Part shown: one piece after another, positions 2,968 to 12,828 of the stretch | Position numbering within the stretch: position 1 is the stretch's first letter | Layout: every line of letters begins with the position of its first letter | DNA from: Nitrospira sp. | GTDB lineage: Bacteria; UBA9089; CG2-30-40-21; SBAY01 | NCBI GenBank assembly: GCA_005239945.1 | Contig: SBAY01000326.1 | Coordinates: 1-13,398 of the forward strand | DNA length: 13,398 nt | Reading direction: 5' to 3' | The notes under the pieces: generated by a model | The model's database searches: none | Told to the model about the DNA's origin: nothing | Seen by the model: the letters and a program-made list of their open reading frames with translations, nothing else | Program-made: the position numbers and the translations under genes

Positions 2968-3095
2968 TGGGACATATAGGTCTTCCTAAGAACCTATCCG
3001 AAAAATCAACGGATGCCTCAACTTGGTTTAGGGGAAAATGCCCTGAACAAGTTCGGGTTTCCAACTTTTCGGATAGGCTCTAAGTCCTATTCTAC
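2968..3095. repeat. Two inverted copies of a small palindromic unit (ATAGG-N-CCTAT followed by CCGAAAA) bracketing a 60-bp core in the SPFH-pckG intergenic region
   Basis: Plus strand 2968-3004 reads ATAGGTCTTCCTAAGAACCTATCCGAAAAA. Minus strand 3095-3066 reads ATAGGACTTAGAGCCTATCCGAAAAG. The outer 12-bp inverted repeat is CCTATCCGAAAA (2993-3004) against TTTTCGGATAGG (3067-3078). A direct repeat AGTCCTATTCTAC occurs twice at 3082-3110, overlapping the pckG stop. Confidence 0.55.
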
Positions 3096-4870
3096 TGGAG
3101 TCCTATTCTACCGGCTAATGCCTCATATTCCTGACGCAGTTCAACCGGCAGGCGACTACCAATCGTATCCAGAAATTCACCCTGGCTTTTCACCTCCTCC
3201 TGCCATTGCGGAATATTGACACTTAAAACCGCCTCAAGCGTTTCTGGGGACAGGTCAAGACCGGTCATATCTAAGGATGCCGGTTGGGGCAGATAGCCAA
3301 TTGGGGTTTCAACTGCCTCCCTATTACCTTTGCATCGTTCGATAATCCATTCGATTACCCGCAGATTCTCACCATAACCAGGCCAGAGGAATTTATCTTT
3401 TTCATCGAGTCTAAACCAGTTAACATGAAATATTTTGGGTGGTTTCTGCATTCGTTTGCCCATTTCAAGCCAATGCCGGAAATAATCACCGATGTTGTAG
3501 CCGCAGAAAGGTAACATAGCCATTGGGTCGCGTCTGATCTCGCCAAATGTGCCAAACTGAGCCGCAGTTCGCTCTGAAGCCATAGTTGCTCCAACATAAA
3601 CCCCATGCTGCCAATTAAACGATTCATAGACCAGGGGAGCTACCTGTGCCCGCTTGCCACCAAAAATAATCGCCGTAATAGGCACACCATGATGATACTC
3701 TACCCGATTAGAAATCGTAGGACAGTTCATAATCGGCACCGTAAACCGGCTATTAGGATGTGCACCTTTGATTGGTTCACCCTTTTCATCCACCAGAGAC
3801 GGTTTCCATGGTCTTCCTTGCCAGTCAATCCCTTCTTCAGGAGCCTGTCCATCTCCTCCTTCCCACCAGACCGTCCCATCCGGTTTCAGGACAACATTGG
3901 TATAAATCGTATCCTTTTTAACCATCTCAACAGCATTGGGGTTAGTTTTGGAATTGGTGCCTGGGGCTACACCGAAGAATCCGTTTTCAGGATTGATGGC
4001 CCATAACCTGCCATCAGAGTCGATTCGCATCCAGGCAATGTCATCCCCGACAGTCCAGATACGATAGCCCTTTCTCTTTAATCCTTCGGGTGGAATAAGC
4101 ATAGCCAGATTGGTTTTCCCACAGGCACTTGGAAACGCCGCCGCAATATATTCGATATAACCGGTTGGGTCTTCTACCCCCATAATCAGCATATGCTCTG
4201 CCAGCCAGCCTTCTTGTCTGGCCATGTAACTGGCGATTCTAAGAGACAGGCATTTTTTCCCTAAAAGGGCATTACCACCGTAGCCTGAGCCAACACTCCA
4301 GATAGTATTTTCCTCTGGAAAATGTAAGATAAGCCGACGCTTGACATCTAAATCTGCCTTAGAGTGAAGGCATTTAGTAAAATCCTCATTTTCACCTAAG
4401 TGGTCAAAAACCGTTTTACCCATACGGGTCATAATCCGCATATTTAAAACAACATAGATGCTATCGGTTAATTGCACCCCAATCTTGCTGAAGGGAGAAC
4501 CGATTGGTCCCATAGAAAACGGCATGACATACATTGTCCGACCTTTCATTGAGCCATCAAAGATTGCCCCTGCTTTGGCATAGGCGTCTTCAGGTGTCAT
4601 CCAATTATTTGTTGGTCCAGCATCCTCCTGATAAGGTGTGCAGATAAAGGTTAAATCCTCTGTCCTGGCAACATCATTAATGGCTGTGCGATGAAATACA
4701 CAACCAGGCAATTTCTCCTGATTAAGTTTAATCAATTCACCGGTTTTGAATGCCTCCTCTTCTAACTGATTCTTTTCCTCAAGAGAACCATCACACCAAT
4801 GCACATGGTCTGGCTTGCATAGTTTTGCCATCTCATTAACCCATTCTAAAACTGCTTTGTTTTTTGTCAT
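3092..4870 (-). CDS. pckG: Phosphoenolpyruvate carboxykinase (GTP)
   Basis: 592 aa from the internal ATG at 4870, which has RBS AAGGAG 7 nt upstream; the track ORF extends 13 codons further with no RBS. Contains the GTP-PEPCK P-loop (kinase-1a) FPSACGKTN and the GSGYGGNALLGKK motif. The length is typical of GTP-type PEPCK. Confidence 0.9.
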   Translation of the reverse strand: MTKNKAVLEWVNEMAKLCKPDHVHWCDGSLEEKNQLEEEAFKTGELIKLNQEKLPGCVFHRTAINDVARTEDLTFICTPYQEDAGPTNNWMTPEDAYAKAGAIFDGSMKGRTMYVMPFSMGPIGSPFSKIGVQLTDSIYVVLNMRIMTRMGKTVFDHLGENEDFTKCLHSKADLDVKRRLILHFPEENTIWSVGSGYGGNALLGKKCLSLRIASYMARQEGWLAEHMLIMGVEDPTGYIEYIAAAFPSACGKTNLAMLIPPEGLKRKGYRIWTVGDDIAWMRIDSDGRLWAINPENGFFGVAPGTNSKTNPNAVEMVKKDTIYTNVVLKPDGTVWWEGGDGQAPEEGIDWQGRPWKPSLVDEKGEPIKGAHPNSRFTVPIMNCPTISNRVEYHHGVPITAIIFGGKRAQVAPLVYESFNWQHGVYVGATMASERTAAQFGTFGEIRRDPMAMLPFCGYNIGDYFRHWLEMGKRMQKPPKIFHVNWFRLDEKDKFLWPGYGENLRVIEWIIERCKGNREAVETPIGYLPQPASLDMTGLDLSPETLEAVLSVNIPQWQEEVKSQGEFLDTIGSRLPVELRQEYEALAGRIGLQ

Positions 4871-4908
4871 AATTCTTCTCCTTTTCCTTTTTTTTGTTTT
4901 CTCAACCA

Positions 4909-4937
4909 ATTATAACATATCCTTTAATAATTTGCAA
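4909..4937 (-). promoter_or_regulatory. sigma70-type promoter for pckG (minus strand: -35 TTGCAA, 17-nt spacer, -10 TATAAT)
   Basis: Minus-strand reading is TTGCAAattattaaaggatatgtTATAAT, followed about 30 nt later by the AAGGAG RBS. An A/T tract (ATAAAAAATTC) lies upstream of the -35. Confidence 0.55.
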
Positions 4938-4947
4938 GAATTTTTTA

Positions 4948-4976
4948 TTGACATACACCTTAATTAGTGATAAAAT
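4948..4976 (+). promoter_or_regulatory. sigma70-type promoter for the K+ channel-yfhO operon (-35 TTGACA, 17-nt spacer, -10 TAAAAT)
   Basis: TTGACA at 4948-4953, a 17-nt spacer, TAAAAT at 4971-4976, and an UP-like GAATTTTTTA directly upstream. The RBS AAAGGAG sits at 4996-5002 and the GTG start at 5008. This promoter is back to back with the pckG promoter, with the two -35 boxes 10 bp apart. Confidence 0.6.
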
Positions 4977-5007
4977 ACAATTATCAATTATTACAAAAGG
5001 AGTTCTT

Positions 5008-6015
5008 GTGTCTATTCAAAGAAAACTTTTGATTACCGGTCTAATCGTAGGATTTATATTTATTAGTGGGGTTAGTGGCTATGTTTTTATCGAGAAATGG
5101 TCATTTCTGGATGCAATTTATATGACCGTAATAACCTTAACCACAGTTGGTTTTGGAGAGGTTAATAAGTTATCTACCCATGGACGAATATTTACTATGG
5201 GATTACTTGTTTGTGGTATGGGAGTGCTTTTTTATGGCTTATCAATGGTAACAGCATTTATTATTGAAGGAGAATTTAAAAATATTTTAGGGAGAAGAAA
5301 GATGGAAAAAGAGATAAGTAAATTAAAAAATCATATTATTTTATGTGGAGTAGGCAAAACAGGGAAGCATATTATGCTGGAGTTTGTAAAGACAAAAATA
5401 CCTTTTGTAGTCATCGAACAAAATAATAGTCGAATAAGTCAAATGCAAAAATTGGCTGCATTTCTTTATTTAGAAGGAGACTCAACCACATCTGAACTAT
5501 TAATTAAAGCAGGAATTGAAAGGGCAAAAGGATTAATCACGACACTGCCGGTAGACAAAGATAACCTATTTGTAATTCTCACGGCAAGGGAGATTAATCC
5601 AAATCTAAAGATAATTAGTAGAGCCATAGAAGAGGAATCGATACATAAACTTTCTAAGGTAGGGGCTGATGTCGTCATTTCACCTAATGCCATCGGCGGT
5701 TTGAGAATGGCCTCGGAGATGATTAGACCTACGGTAGTCTCCTTCCTCGATATAATGATGCGAGACCCACAGCATACCATGAGAATGGAGGAGGTCTGTG
5801 TTCCTCCTAACTCAAGGCTTATTGGTCAATCAATAAAACAAGGTGCCATTCAGGAAAAGACAGGTCTTCTGGTAATTGCCTTGAAAAGGGCAGATGGCTC
5901 ATATCTATTCAATCCCCCTTCCAGTACGCAGATTAATGAACGGGATGTGTTGATAGTTTGCGGCAAAAAGGAACAGGTTGAAAAGATAAAAGAGGTTGTA
6001 GGAGAAAAGAGTTAG
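5008..6015 (+). CDS. 2TM potassium channel with C-terminal RCK (TrkA-N/TrkA-C) domain, MthK-like
   Basis: Two TM helices flank a pore helix and the selectivity filter TLTTVGFGE (TVGFGE in place of the canonical TVGYGD). These are followed by a Rossmann GxGxxG motif (LCGVGKTGKHIM) and a TrkA-C-like tail. The GTG start at 5008 has a well-spaced RBS. The track ORF start at 4894 would run through the promoter. Confidence 0.8.
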   Translation: MSIQRKLLITGLIVGFIFISGVSGYVFIEKWSFLDAIYMTVITLTTVGFGEVNKLSTHGRIFTMGLLVCGMGVLFYGLSMVTAFIIEGEFKNILGRRKMEKEISKLKNHIILCGVGKTGKHIMLEFVKTKIPFVVIEQNNSRISQMQKLAAFLYLEGDSTTSELLIKAGIERAKGLITTLPVDKDNLFVILTAREINPNLKIISRAIEEESIHKLSKVGADVVISPNAIGGLRMASEMIRPTVVSFLDIMMRDPQHTMRMEEVCVPPNSRLIGQSIKQGAIQEKTGLLVIALKRADGSYLFNPPSSTQINERDVLIVCGKKEQVEKIKEVVGEKS

Positions 6016-8505
6016 ATGCAAACACGAATAGGGCCCTTTTTTATTCTTCTGGGCATAACACTCCTATTTTTTGTCAATGCCTTATCTTCTGATTGGACCT
6101 TTGGCTACGGTGATATCCATCGCTATTTTTACCCAATTCGCTATTTTACCGCCTCCTCAATGAAAGAGGGTTTTCTGCCGTTGTGGAATCCGTATCTGTT
6201 TGCCGGCATTCCTAACTTAGCTGCCTTACAACCGGCGGTATTTTATCCGATTTCCATCCTACCCTATTTGTTTCCATTTTTTTATGGAATAGAACTTTTT
6301 ATCATTGTGCACTTCTTTTTAGCCAGTTTATTTACCTACCTGTTAATGAGGCATTTTAAGGTAAGCCGAGCAGGCGCCTTAATTTCAGCACTCACCTATG
6401 GTTTTGGTGGATTTCTTCTATCCGTAGTTGATATGCTCACCACGCTAAGTGCGGCTACCTGGACGCCGCTTATCTTCTTATGCTATCTTAAGGCGTTGGG
6501 GTCAGACCTTGAATATAGTAAGGCGTTGGGGTCTAAGGCGTTGGGGTCAGACCTTGAATATAGAATTTGCACACAAACGCAAATTCTATATTCAAGGTCT
6601 GACCCCAATCTTGCCAATCTTGTCTTCACCGGGCTATTTTTGGGAATCCAGTTTTTAGCCGGTGAACCCACCCAACTGTATGGCACTTTAATTACCTTGT
6701 CGCTATATACGGTGGCAAAGGCCTGGCAAATGTGGCGGCAAAAAGGGGAAAAGGAAAAAGTGACAAAAGCAAAACTGGTTAAGTTCTGCTTTCAAGGTTT
6801 GACCCCATGGCTTATTTGTTTAGGACTAACCCTTTTTCAGGTATTGCCTTTTTTGGAAATGGTTTTGCACTCAACCAGAACATCAGGGCTTAAATTCACC
6901 CATGCGACAAGCCTGTCATTGGGTCCACATGAATTACTAAACTTAGTCTTACCTTACTGGAGCGGTAATTTTATTGAAAAAAGTCATTTCTGGTTTGGAC
7001 AATCATGGTTAGAGAGTATCTACCTGGGGATTTTGCCCTTATTATTTGCCCTGGTAGCCATTGTTTTTGGACGGAAAAAAAGGATAGTGCTGTTTTTTAC
7101 CGGCATAATCTTTATTTTCTTGTTGCTTTCCTTTGGTAAGCTACTCCCCCTGTACAAGACACTTTATCAATATTTACCCGGCTTTAGCATGATTAGATAC
7201 CCGGTCAAATTCTTCTCGTTTGTTGTCCTGGGCATTAGTGTCCTGGCTGGCTTTGGGTTGGATAGGTTAGACGGCTCGGTCAAGTCAAACAAGTCTAACC
7301 TGTCCGACAAAATCTTAAAATTATTCTCTGGTTTTCTCTTGATTTATGCCGGTAGTTTTCTGGTCTTTTTTCTGAATCAACAACGGATTATTCCCTTTTT
7401 AAAGGAGATTTATTTCCCAGAAGCTCTGGATATTTATGTAGCGGCCTGGGCAGATAGTTTGTCAGGAAATTTTATGCTCGTTTGTCTGATTACCCTGGCC
7501 GGTATTCTGCTTATTTCTTTATTATTTAAGGGAAAAATCTCAACAAGGGTATTTAATCTGGGAATAATAGGCCTGGTGATTATAGACTTATTCATCTTTG
7601 GTATGAGAATCAATCCGCTTGTTCCGCAGAAAATTTATGCCTACAAGTCCCCTGCTTTAAGGTTTTTGTTACAGGATACCGATTGTTACCGCATCTTGTT
7701 AGAGCCAAAATCCGAGAGATATTTTCGAATCATCCGTGGCGAGACATTGGAAGATGCCCTGGTTGGTGTCCAGAATTCATTGGTCTCCAATTACGGGCTT
7801 TTTTATAAAATTTTTGATGCCCAGGGGTATGAATCCCTGACCTTAAACGATTACACCCGATTTTTAAAGCTGGTTACGGAACAGGGCGACTGGAATTTGT
7901 TGGATGTATTGAATATTAAATATGTGGTCTCTAAATTTGACTTGAAAATGAGGCAGTTAAAGTTAGTCTATGAGGATGAGTCAATTAAGATATACTGGAA
8001 TACTACCTGTTTGCCAAGGGCATTCTTTGTCCCAAAGGCAAGGGTAATCAGGGATAGACAAAGGGTATTGGAGGAGATGTCAGGTGTAGATTTTGACCCG
8101 CGAAAAGAAATAATTCTGGAAGAAAAAATTCGAAATCCAAATAAATTTTCGATTTTCGATTTTCGATTTTCGATTTCTTCAATCCAAAATCCAAAATCCA
8201 AAATCCAAAATCCTCGAATAATAGATTACCAGCCGAATAAAGTCATCATCACCGCTTCCTCGCCTGGTGCTTGCCTTTTATTCCTGAGCGACACCTATTA
8301 TCCTGGCTGGCGGGCTTTTATAGACGGTAAGCCGACAAAGATATATCGAGCAAACTATACCTTTAGAGCCATTAGTTTTCCTGAGGGTAGTCATACGGTA
8401 GAATTCGTTTATCTGCCTTTGAGTTTCTTAGTCGGAGTTATTGGGAGTGGGATAACGGTGTTTATATCGATAGGATTAATTTTAATGTGGAGGAAGAGAG
8501 GTTAA
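6016..8505 (+). CDS. YfhO-family polytopic membrane protein (putative glycosyl/lipid transferase)
   Basis: 829 aa. The N-terminal region (WTFGYGDIHRYFYPIRYF, LPLWNPYLFAGIPNLA, LLMRHFKVSRAGALISALTYGFGGFLL) matches the conserved YfhO N-terminus. It has many TM helices and a large C-terminal soluble domain. The ATG at 6016 directly abuts the TAG of the K+ channel gene (gtTAGATGcaa), indicating translational coupling. Confidence 0.7.
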   Translation: MQTRIGPFFILLGITLLFFVNALSSDWTFGYGDIHRYFYPIRYFTASSMKEGFLPLWNPYLFAGIPNLAALQPAVFYPISILPYLFPFFYGIELFIIVHFFLASLFTYLLMRHFKVSRAGALISALTYGFGGFLLSVVDMLTTLSAATWTPLIFLCYLKALGSDLEYSKALGSKALGSDLEYRICTQTQILYSRSDPNLANLVFTGLFLGIQFLAGEPTQLYGTLITLSLYTVAKAWQMWRQKGEKEKVTKAKLVKFCFQGLTPWLICLGLTLFQVLPFLEMVLHSTRTSGLKFTHATSLSLGPHELLNLVLPYWSGNFIEKSHFWFGQSWLESIYLGILPLLFALVAIVFGRKKRIVLFFTGIIFIFLLLSFGKLLPLYKTLYQYLPGFSMIRYPVKFFSFVVLGISVLAGFGLDRLDGSVKSNKSNLSDKILKLFSGFLLIYAGSFLVFFLNQQRIIPFLKEIYFPEALDIYVAAWADSLSGNFMLVCLITLAGILLISLLFKGKISTRVFNLGIIGLVIIDLFIFGMRINPLVPQKIYAYKSPALRFLLQDTDCYRILLEPKSERYFRIIRGETLEDALVGVQNSLVSNYGLFYKIFDAQGYESLTLNDYTRFLKLVTEQGDWNLLDVLNIKYVVSKFDLKMRQLKLVYEDESIKIYWNTTCLPRAFFVPKARVIRDRQRVLEEMSGVDFDPRKEIILEEKIRNPNKFSIFDFRFSISSIQNPKSKIQNPRIIDYQPNKVIITASSPGACLLFLSDTYYPGWRAFIDGKPTKIYRANYTFRAISFPEGSHTVEFVYLPLSFLVGVIGSGITVFISIGLILMWRKRG
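6490..6606. repeat. In-frame MITE-like palindromic element inside yfhO: direct repeats AAGGCGTTGGGGTC(AGACCTTGAATATAG) at 6490, 6520 and 6535, then a perfect 28-bp inverted repeat GGGGTCAGACCTTGAATATAGAATTTGC / GCAAATTCTATATTCAAGGTCTGACCCC with loop ACACAAAC
   Basis: Read directly from the sequence. The arms are at 6543-6570 and 6579-6606 with the loop at 6571-6578. The element is about 117 bp, a multiple of 3. It is open in the yfhO frame, where it encodes KALGSDLEYSKALGSKALGSDLEYRICTQTQILYSRSDPN. It is also open in two other frames, as shown by track ORFs 6449..6658 (+) and 6483..6686 (-). Confidence 0.8.
8146..8209. repeat. Two adjacent heptanucleotide tandem tracts inside yfhO: (TTTTCGA)x4 then (TCCAAAA)x4
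   Basis: 8146-8173 is TTTTCGA repeated four times. The spacer is TTTCTTCAA. 8182-8209 is TCCAAAA repeated four times. Both lie in frame in yfhO and encode FSIFDFRFSISSIQNPKSKIQNPRII. A related TTCGAAATCC sits upstream at 8129. Confidence 0.8.
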
Positions 8506-9170
8506 CCGAAGACATGGTGGGCGCGGTAGCGACCGCATTTCTCTCGCTTTTCTGCTACCTCAAGTTCTCTTGTCAAACGCTTTAAAACCTGGGTATTTTC
8601 TTTAGAGGTATAAATATAGAATCCCAGATTAACTAATTTGTCATTTTTAAGATAATAAAAACCCTGATGTTGCGTTAAAGGATCAAGAACTAATGCGGTT
8701 TGCCAGAAATGATTAAAAAAGTTACTTTGGATAAATTTATCCTCTGGTGATAAAAATATGCCCAGACCCGGATGTGTATGGTACCAACCCAATAATTGCT
8801 TATCCTGATGGTATTCAGACATGATACTGTCAATCATCTTCCAAACCTCATGGGTAAAGATAAACTCACCACTTTTATGTTGAATTTCCTTGACCTCAAT
8901 AATATCGGTTATCTGGATAAAGGTGTTTTCTTTTTCACGCATTGCCTTTCCTACAAGAAAACCACCCACCTCGCGGTCAACCCTTTTCTTGGCATGTCTT
9001 CTAACTCTAATAAAGGCATTAACATCTATAAAGATTCTCAAGTCTTTGCCGTCTATCTCTCCCCAGGACAGCAAAGCGTATTTATCCCGTTGATTAATAG
9101 GCATAATCCCTTCTTTTGGACTAAAGTCATAAACAGGATTCAAATTTATACTTATATCCTTTTGCATCAT
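8502..9170 (-). CDS. JAB/MPN+ (JAMM) zinc metalloprotease / isopeptidase-like protein
   Basis: The conserved Glu lies in REVGGFLVGK. The JAMM motif GWYHTHPGLGIFLSPED follows the H-x-H-x7-S-x2-D pattern and is almost identical to the Rpn11/CSN5 signature GWYHSHPGFGCWLSGVD. The start is placed at the ATG at 9170 (MMQKD...), which has RBS AAAGGTGA 6 nt upstream. The predicted transcription start lies downstream of the track's first ATG at 9200. The stop overlaps the yfhO stop on the opposite strand (TTAA at 8502-8505). Confidence 0.7.
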   Translation of the reverse strand: MMQKDISINLNPVYDFSPKEGIMPINQRDKYALLSWGEIDGKDLRIFIDVNAFIRVRRHAKKRVDREVGGFLVGKAMREKENTFIQITDIIEVKEIQHKSGEFIFTHEVWKMIDSIMSEYHQDKQLLGWYHTHPGLGIFLSPEDKFIQSNFFNHFWQTALVLDPLTQHQGFYYLKNDKLVNLGFYIYTSKENTQVLKRLTRELEVAEKREKCGRYRAHHVFG

Positions 9171-9190
9171 CAATTCACCTTTTGACATAA

Positions 9191-9219
9191 ATATTAACAT
9201 AAAATATTCCCTGTGTCAA
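9191..9219 (-). promoter_or_regulatory. sigma70-type promoter for the JAB/MPN gene (minus strand: -35 TTGACA, 17-nt spacer, -10 TAATAT)
   Basis: Minus-strand reading is gaattttttgTTGACAcagggaatattttatgtTAATAT. The -35 is the complement of 9214-9219 and the -10 the complement of 9191-9196. It shares the AATTTTTT tract seen at the other promoters in this window. Confidence 0.55.
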
Positions 9220-9366
9220 CAAAAAATTCAGGACAAATGTTTTGGGAATAAGTCATATATGTTATATAAATCCTATTCTTCCCGAACTCCAAATCCCGCT
9301 AAAAACCGATGATAGAAAATTCCCACAAATAACCGATCGATTAGATTAAAGTAAATTTTTTACAGT

Positions 9367-10512
9367 CTAATGGCTGATATCACCTTGTTTAACTTTAAAT
9401 ATGCACGCCTCCTTTACAAAATCTGAACTTAACTCATCTAAATGTGTTGTGGTAATAAAAACCTGTAGGCTTGCTTTATTAATATCTTTGCCTATAAAAT
9501 TTAAAAGAGCCTCCCGTTTGATTTCATCTAATTCAGAGGTTATATCATCTAACAAAAGAATAGGGAGTTCTTGAGTATGGTGGTATTGATATTGAAGTTC
9601 GGTTAATTTCAAACAAATAGCTATTGTCCTTTGTTGACCTTGAGAGGCAAAATACCTGGCATTAATATTATTTATATAAAAGGAAATATCATCTCGATGT
9701 GGCCCAATTAAGGTTGTCTCCTGCCTTATTTCATTTTCTTGTCTAACTTTCAGTTTTTCTCTAAAATCTTCCTCAACCACACAAGGTTTATAATCAATTT
9801 TTATCTCTTGTCGATGGCCACTAATCTGGTGATAAATTTCATTGATTAAAGGATTCAATTCGTTGAGTAACTCTTGTCTTTTTCTTATAATTGGGATACC
9901 TGTTTCCACTAATTGGTCATCCCAGGCCTCTAATTCTTTTAAGTCTAATTCCATATGAGGCATTATGCCCCTGTTTCTTTTGAGCATGGATAATATTTGA
10001 TTACGCTGTTTAATGATTTTGAGGTATCTCTGAAGGTTGTATAAATAACTGGGTGATACTTGAGACAGTTCGATATCAAGGAATCGTCTCCGTATTGCCG
10101 GACTACCCTTGACAATTTCCAAATCCTCCGGCGAAAAGACAACTACCTTTAATTGTCCGATTAAATCTATTATCCTTGTCAGGGCTTTATTATTTATCCT
10201 AACCTTCTTTTGAAGGCTTGCCTTGTTAAGGCTTGCCTCGTTATTAGCGGTAAATGAGATATTAATCTGGGTTTCGGTGTTTTCTTTTAATATTTTACCA
10301 TTTAAAAATAATTCCACTTCCCCAAATTTAATTAACTGTTTATCCTGGTTTGTGCGGAAGGATTTTAAAATCCCAAGAAAATAAATTGCCTCTAAAAGAT
10401 TTGTCTTCCCTGCTCCATTTTCTCCGACAAAGATGTTTATCCTTGAATCAAAGTTTAAATTCAGCTCGTTAAGATTTCGAAAGTTTTTTATGGTTATTTC
10501 TTTTAAAAACAA
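9367..10512 (-). CDS. recF: DNA replication and repair protein RecF
   Basis: 381 aa. Walker A GENGAGKTNLLEAI and the RecF-type N-terminus (KEITIKNFRNL) are present. An ABC/SMC-like signature region and a C-terminal LLLDDITSELDE Walker B/D-loop follow. A TTG start at 10512 is preceded by RBS GAGGGGG. Confidence 0.9.
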   Translation of the reverse strand: MFLKEITIKNFRNLNELNLNFDSRINIFVGENGAGKTNLLEAIYFLGILKSFRTNQDKQLIKFGEVELFLNGKILKENTETQINISFTANNEASLNKASLQKKVRINNKALTRIIDLIGQLKVVVFSPEDLEIVKGSPAIRRRFLDIELSQVSPSYLYNLQRYLKIIKQRNQILSMLKRNRGIMPHMELDLKELEAWDDQLVETGIPIIRKRQELLNELNPLINEIYHQISGHRQEIKIDYKPCVVEEDFREKLKVRQENEIRQETTLIGPHRDDISFYINNINARYFASQGQQRTIAICLKLTELQYQYHHTQELPILLLDDITSELDEIKREALLNFIGKDINKASLQVFITTTHLDELSSDFVKEACIFKVKQGDISH

Positions 10513-10535: not shown

Positions 10536-10760
10536 CTTCAATTCAGACATTAGATTTCAGGCTTTAGACATCAGACTTTTCGGTTCTTGCGGGTTTTTTG
10601 TGGAAGTGAATGATTGTAGAAACCAAAAATAATTCAATGTCCAATGTCCAATTAGCAATTAGCATTTTAAAATTATTTCTTTCATTGATGATTACTACTG
10701 CACATTTTTCTTCTCTTAGTCTAAATGTCTGATGTCTATGGTCTAATGTCTGAATTGAAG
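10536..10760. repeat. About 225-bp element filling the recF-larB intergenic region, bounded by inverted heptamer-repeat arms (about 41 nt, TCAGACA/TTAGACA-type units) with internal (AATGTCC)x2 and (AATTAGC)x2 tandems
   Basis: The left arm is CTTCAATTCAGACATTAGATTTCAGGCTTTAGACATCAGAC (10536-10576). The right arm is GTCTAAATGTCTGATGTCTATGGTCTAATGTCTGAATTGAAG (10719-10760). Its reverse complement matches the left arm except for a 7-nt indel. No target-site duplication is evident. Confidence 0.6.
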
Positions 10761-11533: not shown

Positions 11534-11552
11534 AATTTTTCCTTACTTGTAA

Positions 11553-11685
11553 CGGTTCAAGGTTCAAAGTTCAAGGTTCAAGGTTTTAGGATAGTAGCTA
11601 ATGAGTAGTGGGTAGCCAGGAAAATAGTTTTCCACAACCCATAACCCATCCTTGATTTTTCATTATTACCCTGAACCTTGAACCC
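11553..11685. repeat. Inverted heptamer arrays in the larB 5' leader: (GGTTCAA)x4-5 at 11553-11590 and the inverted copy CCCTGAACCTTGAACCC at 11669-11685
   Basis: Read directly from the sequence. The two arrays are reverse complements about 80 bp apart and can form a long hairpin. A small palindrome GGAAAATAGTTTTCC lies between them. Confidence 0.65.
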
Positions 11686-11694
11686 TTTCCAACT

Positions 11695-12000: not shown

Positions 12001-12156
12001 AAGCGGTCAACCTTTAGATTGAAGTAATACTTCTTTTAGAAGGTATTAATCCAACCTGAAGGCTAATAACTGAACGCTTACTTTATTTTCTATTAAAAAT
12101 TCATCCCTGGAAGGGGGTTCTATATATATTTTAGAGAAATTAAGGAGATGATTAAA

Positions 12157-12270
12157 ATGGAATTTAGATGTTATTATTGCCAGACTCCTATAAACAGAGA
12201 AAATTATTTAGAGATAATGTTTAAAGGAGAAATAATTGGTTACATCTGTAAACAATGTCCAGAAAATTAA
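12157..12270 (+). CDS. Small zinc-ribbon protein (37 aa, two CxxC pairs); not in the provided ORF track
   Basis: Translation is MEFRCYYCQTPINRENYLEIMFKGEIIGYICKQCPEN. The two CxxC motifs are 22 residues apart. RBS AAGGAG (12142-12147) lies 9 nt upstream of the ATG. The stop TAA at 12268-12270 is 3 nt before the RBS of the next gene, which suggests translational coupling. Confidence 0.5.
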   Translation: MEFRCYYCQTPINRENYLEIMFKGEIIGYICKQCPEN

Positions 12271-12290
12271 GGATAGGAGGAGAGGGAAAA

Positions 12291-12749
12291 ATGAAGAGAC
12301 AATTTGAAATTGTTCCTGTAGAAGGAAGTAAAGATTTAGTTGAAATTACCTTCAAGGAAGGTTTTAAATTCCAGGTGGATAAGAAAAATAAACTCTTTGT
12401 GAAATTTGTGATGATATTGTTGCACTACGCTGGTGGTGCGGCTACCTATTTTGCTCCTCTTTTAGGATTTACCGACCGTGCCTTCCACAATATAAAAGAA
12501 TATTTCAAGGAATCCGGGATTAAATCATTCTATCACGGAAATCATTACAGACAGAATGCCCGTAAAATAATGGATGAAGATATCGGCAGGATATTAACCT
12601 TGATTGTGCAACATCCGACAGAATCTAATCGAGTGATTGCAGATAGGTTTAATGAACAAAGAGATATTAAGATAAGTTTTAGAAGTGTAGAAAGACTGCG
12701 AAATCAATATAAACTATTGAAAAAGAAGAAAAGCAAAAAAATAAAGTAA
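12291..12749 (+). CDS. Hypothetical protein with a C-terminal helix-turn-helix-like segment (transposase/resolvase-type HTH?) and a Lys-rich tail
   Basis: 152 aa from the ATG at 12291, which has RBS AGGAGGAG. The track start at 12255 lies inside the upstream small ORF in another frame and lacks an RBS. The C-terminal segment DIGRILTLIVQHPTESNRVIADRFNEQRDIKISFRSVERLRNQY has an HTH-like pattern. The N-terminal 90 aa has no motif I recognise. Confidence 0.55.
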   Translation: MKRQFEIVPVEGSKDLVEITFKEGFKFQVDKKNKLFVKFVMILLHYAGGAATYFAPLLGFTDRAFHNIKEYFKESGIKSFYHGNHYRQNARKIMDEDIGRILTLIVQHPTESNRVIADRFNEQRDIKISFRSVERLRNQYKLLKKKKSKKIK

Positions 12750-12750
12750 G

Positions 12751-12828
12751 CGGTAATCAGGTAATCAGGTAATCGGTAATCAGGTAATCGGGTAATCGGG
12801 TAATGTAGGAGACCGCTCACCGATTACC
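12751..12828. repeat. (A/G)GGTAATC hepta/octamer tandem array of about 7 units followed by its inverted copy CGATTACC; intergenic hairpin between the 152-aa ORF and the downstream HTH-TPR gene
   Basis: 12751-12804 reads CGGTAATCAGGTAATCAGGTAATCGGTAATCAGGTAATCGGGTAATCGGGTAAT. The loop is GTAGGAGACCGCTCAC. CGATTACC at 12821-12828 is the reverse complement of GGTAATCG. No U-tract follows, so it is not a classic terminator. Confidence 0.7.

Follow-up and report, generated by a model that had tools for sequence, protein, structure and literature searches.

The window, by which we mean the whole stretch of DNA analysed, is the 13,398-nucleotide (nt) contig SBAY01000326.1 of the Nitrospira sp. assembly GCA_005239945.1. 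On its minus strand it carries a gene for a JAMM/MPN+ (Rpn11-like) metallopeptidase, called here the JAB gene after its Pfam family, and this gene is the subject of the analysis. The list of open reading frames (ORFs) and its translations give a minus-strand ORF at 8502–9200, which encodes 232 amino acids (aa) when counted from the first ATG and contains EVGGFLVG and GWYHTHPGLGIFLSPED, as a preliminary description made from the sequence had reported. The true start is almost certainly the ATG at 9170, judging from the reading frame and the homologues, and the protein then has 222 aa. This start is preferred because relatives have 221–222 aa, because the ATG at 9200 lies within the promoter, and because a Shine–Dalgarno-like AAAGGTG, read directly from the sequence (9176–9182, minus strand), stands 5 nt before 9170. 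The 14 close homologues in the protein collection are 221–222 aa long where complete, and their first residue falls at the position of ATG 9170. The –10 hexamer begins shortly after the ATG at 9200, whose TG makes the extended –10 element, and the longer ORF that this ATG opens is probably unused. The coding sequence, delimited with the ORF list, the Pfam JAB match, the homologue starts and the substitution rates, thus occupies 8505–9170 on the minus strand and is followed by the stop codon at 8502–8504. As read from the sequence, this is a real and intact gene of an uncultured bacterium, encoding a predicted zinc peptidase of the deubiquitinase type.

The convergent yfhO gene ends at 8503–8505, and the two stop codons overlap on opposite strands within a TTAA. 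This overlap had been described before, together with the statement that neither gene has a terminator; the overlap stands, and the statement needs amending for one weak hairpin at 8523–8536 on the plus strand, just past the yfhO stop, which is the lone terminator-like feature.

REVGGFLVG and GWYHTHPGLGIFLSPED together form the complete JAMM signature E...HxHx7Sx2D. The motif H131-T-H133-PGLGIFL-S141-PE-D144, located by regular expression and alignment at 8739–8780 (minus strand), holds the predicted zinc ligands and the oxyanion serine. The catalytic glutamate, E67, is part of REVGGFL and is encoded at 8970–8972 on the same strand. In an alignment of the 15-sequence close clade, E67, H131, H133, S141 and D144 are all invariant. 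In a broader alignment of 60 sequences, E67, H131, H133 and S141 are again invariant and D144 is kept in at least 90%. The catalytic residues named in the preliminary description are therefore all present, and careful alignment revealed the loss of none.

The Pfam model JAB (PF01398) matched the protein with 46.8 bits (E = 3.1e-12; gathering cut-off 22.5), which places it in the superfamily. Prok-JAB (PF14464) scored 29.1 bits on the same protein, below the JAB score, and the RadC model gave no match at E ≤ 0.01 in the Pfam search. When entries of the Protein Data Bank (PDB) were ranked by sequence, CsRpn11 (6fjv, E = 1.7e-12) came first, followed by yeast and human Rpn11 (PSMD14), CSN5 and AMSH. 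On these profile and sequence matches the protein is assigned to the Rpn11/CSN5-type, or eukaryote-type, MPN+ enzymes and is neither a RadC protein nor a short prokaryotic JAB. The same classification had been proposed beforehand, and the comparison of hidden Markov models agrees with it, no RadC-like or other housekeeping clade having emerged.

An AlphaFold2 model computed from 60 sequences has the MPN fold, with a predicted local distance difference test score (pLDDT) of 85.3 and a predicted template modelling score of 0.84. The fold covers residues ~27–189 and is followed by a long helix (190–212) and a short disordered tail of 10 aa. A Foldseek search against the PDB gave 220 matches with E-values of 1e-3 or less, and the best 50, which were listed, consist entirely of MPN proteins, headed by CsRpn11 (6fju/6fnn, E = 9e-11), Rpn11 and CSN5. 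The alignments to CSN5 and to Rpn11 from the whole lid span ~205 columns, so they take in the helix after the MPN fold. The preliminary description had spoken of extensions of about 40 aa at the N-terminus and about 80 aa at the C-terminus. Extensions do exist and their structure could be predicted, but these sizes are overstated, mostly because the Pfam profile is short. According to the Rpn11 alignments and the model, ~26 aa lie outside the MPN fold at the N-terminus, and at the C-terminus the helix and the 10-aa tail. By analogy with its structural neighbours, and given its predicted active site, the protein would be a soluble, catalytically competent zinc isopeptidase.

Two further elements were delineated in the sequence. 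Residues ~94–106 (EVKEIQHKSGEFI; 8853–8891, minus strand), between a strand at 82–93 and a helix at 107–120, are the only internal stretch of low confidence in the model, with pLDDT falling to 68–72. They fall where Rpn11 and CsRpn11 carry Ins-1, a loop that becomes a hairpin on packing against ubiquitin's C-terminal tail (PMC6043591). Within this stretch KSGEFIFTHEVW is invariant in the clade, and FTH(E/Q)(V/T)W is common to many of the operon-linked relatives considered below. By analogy, this Ins-1-like loop, delineated by the dip in confidence and by conservation, is the predicted docking site for the C-terminal tail of a ubiquitin-like protein (Ubl). The second element is the C-terminal helix with its basic tail, ...LEVAEKREKCGRYRAHHVFG, encoded at 8505–8603 (minus strand), a subfamily signature defined from the predicted secondary structure and the clade alignment. 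The clade C-terminus LE(V/I)(A/G)EKRE(K/R)(C/S)GRYRAHH is nearly invariant. Across the 211 proteins collected, EKRExxGRY[KR] is restricted to the clade and to two operon-linked relatives, P0063 and P0064, where it takes the form (A)(E/Q)KR(E/D)RSGRYK. Since P0063 and P0064 have it, the tail predates the orphaning of the gene proposed below and is not an adaptation to solitary life. The extreme C-termini (...HHIFT, ...HHVFG) were also considered as a proteasome-docking motif of the HbYX kind; this found no support, and no proteasome or AAA+ gene is nearby.

The close clade comprises 15 sequences of 67–84% identity, with a mean column identity of 78%, and every one of them comes from metagenomes or metagenome-assembled genomes (MAGs). 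The nearest gene-bearing contig, at 82% identity, is labelled 'MAG: Nitrospirota bacterium'. Assemblies with clade members include, besides that of the window, GCA_040754115.1 (JBFMDD01), GCA_040757115.1 (JBFLYA01) and the 'Nitrospirota' MAG JBDRHR01. The G+C content of the clade contigs is 31–39%, and that of the contigs of three operon-linked loci (L093, L094 and L095) is 32–39%. Pairwise ratios of non-synonymous to synonymous substitution rates (dN/dS) among seven clade members were 0.08–0.23, with dS up to ~2. The gene is kept under purifying selection.

A sigma-70-type promoter, recognized by a consensus scan, precedes the gene at 9191–9226 on the minus strand. It consists of a T-run (9226–9221), the –35 hexamer TTGACA (9219–9214), a 17-nt spacer and TG-n-TAATAT (9199–9191), and it matches the consensus at 10 of 12 positions in addition to the TG of the extended –10 element. 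Promoter-like sites in 8300–9500 are no more frequent than shuffled sequence would give (4 found, 4.4 expected), and the case for the promoter is made by its conservation across loci, not by the scan. The window and clade loci L008, L002, L003 and L097 all have the same T-run, TTGACA and TATGnTA, while the sequence farther upstream is unrelated. The claim that the gene has a promoter of its own is thereby borne out. The conserved promoter is absent from the L001 and L098/L099 contexts. Where it is present, its strength and conservation suggest that the gene would be transcribed by itself. It was also observed that the 17-nt spacer (ATAgAGAATATTTTA) is largely conserved in the same five loci (window positions 9200–9226), whose proteins are 67–82% identical; this hints at an operator or some other regulatory constraint inside the promoter.

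The genes around the JAB gene were identified with Pfam as encoding a YgjP-like protein, an aminotransferase, a Band_7 protein, a GTP-dependent phosphoenolpyruvate carboxykinase (PEPCK), a TrkA-type K+ channel and YfhO, together with recF, an AIRC/LarB-like gene and an ORF with a weak HTH_32 match. No Rfam family and no tRNA were found in the window. Neither Pfam nor tblastn with 20 partner proteins from related operons detected an E1, E2, Ubl, RING or STAND gene or a second JAB gene in the window, and the absence of E1, E2 and Ubl partners noted in the preliminary description was confirmed, the Ubl, E2, E1, RING and STAND queries all returning empty. The products of the small ORFs at 10.5–10.8 kb and 11.5–13.4 kb do not resemble beta-grasp proteins.

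The same holds beyond the window. The clade is represented by 13 loci (L001–L009, L097–L099 and the window), which reduce to eight distinct contexts: the window; L001; L002, identical to L009; L003/L004/L005/L007; L006; L008; L097; and L098/L099. In none of the 13 loci did tblastn give a Ubl, E2 or E1 match at E ≤ 1e-3, and the 20 partner proteins uncovered no hidden or decayed partner gene in any of them. No second MPN gene is present in the window or in any clade context, which leaves the protein with no candidate for the MPN– partner of a PCI lid; its chemistry is Rpn11-like, but it is not a lid subunit.

The neighbours of the clade genes vary. The only one to recur in three of the eight contexts (the window, L001 and L002) is the convergent yfhO, whose products are ~66% identical and whose stop codon overlaps that of the JAB gene in the window and L001. 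Immediately before the JAB gene, in L001 (2430–8495) and in L098/L099 (L098, 1–3447; L099, 14–1626), comes a UPF0164/PorV-like gene, which is itself preceded by a gene for an FG-GAP protein; in L098 and L099 the stop of the PorV-like gene overlaps the JAB start. The FG-GAP repeat protein of L001 is large and has a weak Pfam match, below the curated cut-off, to the C-terminal sorting domain of the type IX secretion system. Other clade neighbours are a divergent Poly_export gene, an ABC exporter, CarboxypepD_reg genes, an HTH_3 gene, the series pth-lptE-holA and a FemAB-like gene. A 49-aa ORF was observed upstream of the JAB gene in L097.

A different picture is obtained outside the clade. An exhaustive HMMER search covering 1.84 billion cluster representatives yielded 4596 relatives, of which 2426 reach E ≤ 1e-10 and 27 reach E ≤ 1e-30. 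Among 179 fetched loci, 47 loci outside the clade match the window protein at E ≤ 2e-20 in tblastn; a Ubl, E2 or E1 match was present in 42 of these, and the other five are short or truncated contigs. Four relatives of 31–35% identity (P0016, P0026, P0043 and P0023) are all encoded in operons with a YukD-like Ubl, a UQ_con E2, a ThiF-type E1 and a JAB, and such operons often add Prok-RING_1, FHA, vWA, FtsK or a second JAB. A scan of metagenome contigs added further operon-linked loci; among the matches listed it contained no more clade members, only relatives of at most 35% identity. The nearest relatives outside the clade are JABs in Ubl/E2/E1/RING operons, and the protein is not isolated from Ubl systems, a point that the preliminary description had missed. 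Gene-neighbourhood analysis thus agrees with that description as far as the clade goes, with its stand-alone genes and no partners in cis, and departs from it for the relatives beyond.

Several of these operons (L088, L090, L092, L093, L094 and L010–L022) were inspected individually. They encode one or two YukD-like Ubls, one or two UQ_con E2s, a ThiF E1 and Prok-RING_1, as well as FHA, vWA, FtsK or STAND proteins, and their JABs are often in tandem. The operon Ubls end in ...ITAG or ...ITPG; one has an extra residue (...ITAGL) and one is fused to E2. For the ...ITAGL precursor and the Ubl–E2 fusion a peptidase is therefore needed to expose the terminal glycine.

Full-length homologues that bridge the clade and the operon-linked JABs were recovered in the HMMER search: P0063 (46–48% identity), P0064 (41%) and P0065 (41%). 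P0063, encoded on the longer contig, is the product of the second JAB gene in the array E2 – JAB (267 aa) – JAB (P0063) – STAND/TPR NTPase, and P0064 that of the second gene in JAB (218 aa) – JAB (P0064) – NB-ARC NTPase. The window protein has closer ties with these second JABs (46% and 41%) than with the first member of either pair (38% and 34%). In the tandem pairs neither JAB has lost any part of the JAMM motif. A neighbor-joining tree of the MPN core (175 columns, 200 bootstraps) recovered the orphan clade as monophyletic (100%) and as sister to the second JABs (100%), with the first JABs joining at 78.5%. The window clade thus nests among operon-encoded JABs. Taken on its sequence relationships, the window gene represents an orphaned and newly delineated branch of the bacterial Ubl-operon JABs; the enzyme would be of a known kind, and no new system is proposed.

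The reading that we favor, with a probability of roughly 0.55, is that of an Rpn11/CSN5-type isopeptidase, an orphaned operon JAB, which handles a Ubl encoded elsewhere. The gene would descend from the second of two tandem JABs in a bacterial Ubl-conjugation operon, where its partners would have been a YukD-like Ubl (...ITAG), a UQ_con E2, a ThiF-type E1, often a RING protein, and FHA, vWA or STAND proteins. It would have left the operon in a low-GC uncultured lineage, to become monocistronic and unlinked from any ligase, and would since have come to rest in varied surroundings, among core genes (recF, holA, pth, lptE) in some cases and among surface and envelope genes in others. Homology with CsRpn11, Rpn11 and BubCD predicts that H131, H133 and D144 hold Zn2+, with E67 acting as the general base that activates water and S141 steadying the oxyanion. 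The Ins-1-like loop would pair with the extended C-terminal tail of a beta-grasp Ubl, and the cut would be made directly after the terminal glycine, so that a Ubl precursor or fusion is trimmed, a Ubl is taken off target lysines, or both. The genes for the cognate Ubl, E1 and E2 would lie at other places in the genome. Processing or deconjugation of such a Ubl is the most likely function, one in which enzymatic activity, a Ubl substrate and partners in trans are inferred by analogy. CsRpn11 acts alone in solution on Ubl precursors and conjugates (PMC6043591), and the BubCD JAB cleaves a Ubl–E2 fusion (PMC11601596).

Several points weigh against this reading. Ubl, E1 and E2 genes are absent within ~2.7–8.5 kb of the JAB gene in those clade contexts whose length allows a judgement, and the second JAB of the ancestral tandem pair is missing as well. 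The neighbours that do recur are envelope genes (yfhO and the UPF0164/PorV-like gene), not Ubl genes. Partners in trans are an assumption, made from single contigs. The reading also assigns no role to the conserved basic tail.

The substrate might instead be a sulfur-carrier-type beta-grasp protein such as ThiS, MoaD, CysO or a SAMP-like protein, which the enzyme would process or release from conjugates. Mec+, QbsD and the archaeal JAMM1 desampylases act on carriers of this kind and are often unlinked from their substrates, and for archaea the action of stand-alone JAMM enzymes on SAMPs encoded at a distance is established. The lack of a nearby E2 gene fits such a role, as does a match to the NCBIfam haloarchaeal desampylase model NF041370 (21.6 bits, E = 1.6e-4), but this score is far under the model cut-off of 130 bits and the protein is not a member of that family. 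Prok-JAB, the model that covers the sulfur-carrier JAMM proteins, scores under the eukaryote-type JAB model; the near relatives are all linked to E2 and YukD-like Ubls and not to ThiS or MoaD genes; and the Pfam search found no ThiS, MoaD or CysO gene in the window. In addition, SAMP precursors are not substrates of CsRpn11, the protein with the best structural match (PMC6043591). A sulfur-carrier substrate is accordingly regarded as unlikely.

An improbable alternative, which we hold about as tentatively as the sulfur-carrier one, is that the lineage has truly lost, or never had, a cognate E1, E2 and Ubl and yet keeps the enzyme under strong purifying selection, along with its promoter and basic tail; the substrate is then not a canonical self-encoded Ubl conjugate. 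It might be a protein of the envelope or of secretion that is connected with the YfhO and PorV-like proteins encoded nearby, for example, or else Ubl conjugates imposed by phages or competing bacteria. If this were true, no earlier case would be known of a bacterial 'deubiquitinase' that stands alone and does housekeeping work without depending on a conjugation cascade.

The envelope can also be made the specific destination of the enzyme, which after loss of the Ubl system would have taken a non-Ubl substrate tied to envelope or secretion biogenesis. The convergent yfhO with its overlapping stops, the UPF0164/PorV-like gene behind the FG-GAP gene, and the Poly_export, LptE, FemAB-like, ABC exporter and CarboxypepD_reg neighbours all point in this direction, and the more distant relatives include JAB–LysM fusions with a transmembrane-like segment. 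This envelope theme is loose: it is weak because the yfhO pairing is convergent, and so forms no operon, and because the neighbours differ from context to context. The gene has its own promoter in five contexts, inspection by eye revealed neither a signal peptide nor a transmembrane segment in the window protein, and the Ins-1-like loop and active site are unchanged from those of the operon-linked relatives. P0043, which resembles the fusions, is itself encoded in a Ubl/E2/E1 operon. A dedicated envelope function is thus doubtful, somewhat more so than the preceding alternatives.

In many relatives of 290–310 aa among P0033–P0055 (for example P0035, P0044 and P0047), an N-terminal JAB domain and a C-terminal LysM domain flank a segment that, on inspection by eye, is hydrophobic and transmembrane-like. 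Their sequences suggest a membrane-anchored peptidase with a peptidoglycan-binding ectodomain. The related P0043 has 306 aa and no Pfam LysM match, and its operon also encodes a trypsin-like protease.

A part in anti-phage defence, of the CBASS Cap3, Bil or Bub type, or as a phage-tail MPN module, is very unlikely. The closest operon-linked relatives do adjoin STAND or NB-ARC NTPases, which are typical of conflict systems (PMC7159879), PADLOC JAB models match the protein (best 42.7 bits), and there is a faint PHROG tail-protein match (17.8 bits). Nevertheless, the PADLOC and PHROG matches are at the level of the domain only, no CD-NTase, Cap2, BilA, BilB, BilD, Bub or phage gene was found in the window or the clade contexts, and the neighbours are mostly ordinary chromosomal genes. 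The phage-tail module was rejected outright, the faint PHROG match being the sole one. Most disfavoured of all is a DNA-repair deconjugase working with RecF, at which the preliminary description had hinted: recF does end 196 nt upstream of ATG 9170 on the same strand, and holA (DNA polymerase III delta) is upstream in L097, but recF is the upstream gene in the window only (one of eight contexts), a separate promoter stands between recF and the JAB gene, clade members elsewhere lie downstream of the UPF0164/PorV-like gene, beside the divergent Poly_export gene or downstream of holA, and no relative of the JAB protein is linked to repair genes.

Some other features of the window were recorded. 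Period-7 tandem repeats are numerous (for example ATTTTCG x4.6, AATCCAA x4.7 and GGTTCAA x4.6), together with inverted repeats built from them. They lie at 6484–6608 and 8145–8213, both inside yfhO, and at 10536–10760, 11551–11687 and 12746–12804; a perfect 30-nt inverted repeat occupies 6541–6608. The repeats in yfhO coincide with in-frame insertions (SDLEYSKALGSKALGSDLEY..., ...IRNPNKFSIFDFRFS...) that are absent from the YfhO orthologues of L001 and L002, and they look like small mobile or expandable elements tolerated within coding sequence. At 12148–12749 a 164-aa ORF with the weak HTH_32 match (homeodomain-like, transposase-type) is found behind an overlapping 40-aa CxxC...CxxC ORF, and ~650 nt of non-coding, repeat-bearing sequence runs from the 164-aa ORF to the contig end; this region may be an insertion sequence remnant. 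The longest PEPCK ORF (3092–4909, 605 aa) opens with a TTG at 4909, where it overlaps the first codons of the divergent K+ channel ORF (4894–6015). The true pckG start is probably ~13 codons downstream of 4909, because homologues have ~592 aa. The window PckG shares 90% identity with its best match, from a 'Nitrospirota bacterium' MAG, and 71–76% with proteins labelled 'bacterium', Omnitrophota and Margulisiibacteriota.

The Bil, Bub and CBASS Cap2/Cap3 Ubl systems are under fast characterisation, and the eukaryote-like operons of Chloroflexota and other phyla are known mainly by comparative genomics. The clade adds to this an example of an operon component, the second of two tandem JABs, that has survived on its own in an uncultured lineage of low G+C content, as a chromosomal gene predicted to be well expressed. 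Should there be partners in trans, as under the favored reading of an orphaned operon JAB, the protein would be the dispersed peptidase of a Ubl system and a compact, soluble 222-aa enzyme suited to biochemistry and structural work. If there are none, it would represent a change of substrate for an Rpn11-type enzyme. Either way no long-standing question is opened, and the suggested link to recF and DNA repair is corrected.

Among the known systems, the JABs BilC, Cap3 and BubCD are JAMM peptidases that process Ubl precursors or fusions or reverse conjugation (PMC11601596). They are always in an operon with, or fused to, E1 and E2, and their likeness to the window protein is at the domain level only. 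HvJAMM1, PfJAMM1 and Mec+/QbsD provide the precedent for a JAMM gene unlinked from its Ubl, but belong to a different subfamily. Eukaryotic Rpn11 (PSMD14) and CSN5 have the same MPN+ fold and JAMM motif; unlike them, the window gene has no MPN– partner, PCI lid or AAA+ unfoldase context. The bacterial tandem JABs, both of which keep the JAMM motif, likewise differ from the eukaryotic MPN+/MPN– heterodimers.

The bacterial Ubl-E2-E1-(RING) operons and their JABs were reportedly described by computation by Burroughs, Iyer and Aravind in 2011. Kaur et al. (2020, PMC7159879) likewise described, by computation, prokaryotic systems of Ubl conjugation that are complete, comprising JAB, E1, a RING-type E3 and a Ubl–E2 fusion. 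Operons of this Ubl/E2/E1/RING/JAB kind are distinct from the Bil and Bub operons (PMC11601596, PMC11601603). The best match by both sequence and fold is CsRpn11 of Caldiarchaeum subterraneum (PDB 6FJU, 6FJV, 6FNN; PMC6043591). It resembles the window protein in being small and soluble, in belonging to the MPN+ enzymes and in having an Ins-1 loop and a C-terminal helix; unlike the window gene, it is encoded in a Ub/E1/E2/RING operon and lacks the EKRExxGRY[KR] tail, and the identity is ~25–27%. The window clade differs from the operon JABs in having no Ubl neighbourhood (eight of eight contexts), no paired JAB and no STAND NTPase, and the window gene differs in having its own promoter. The clade has in common with them the full-length architecture and the catalytic and Ins-1 motifs and, with P0063 and P0064, the C-terminal tail.

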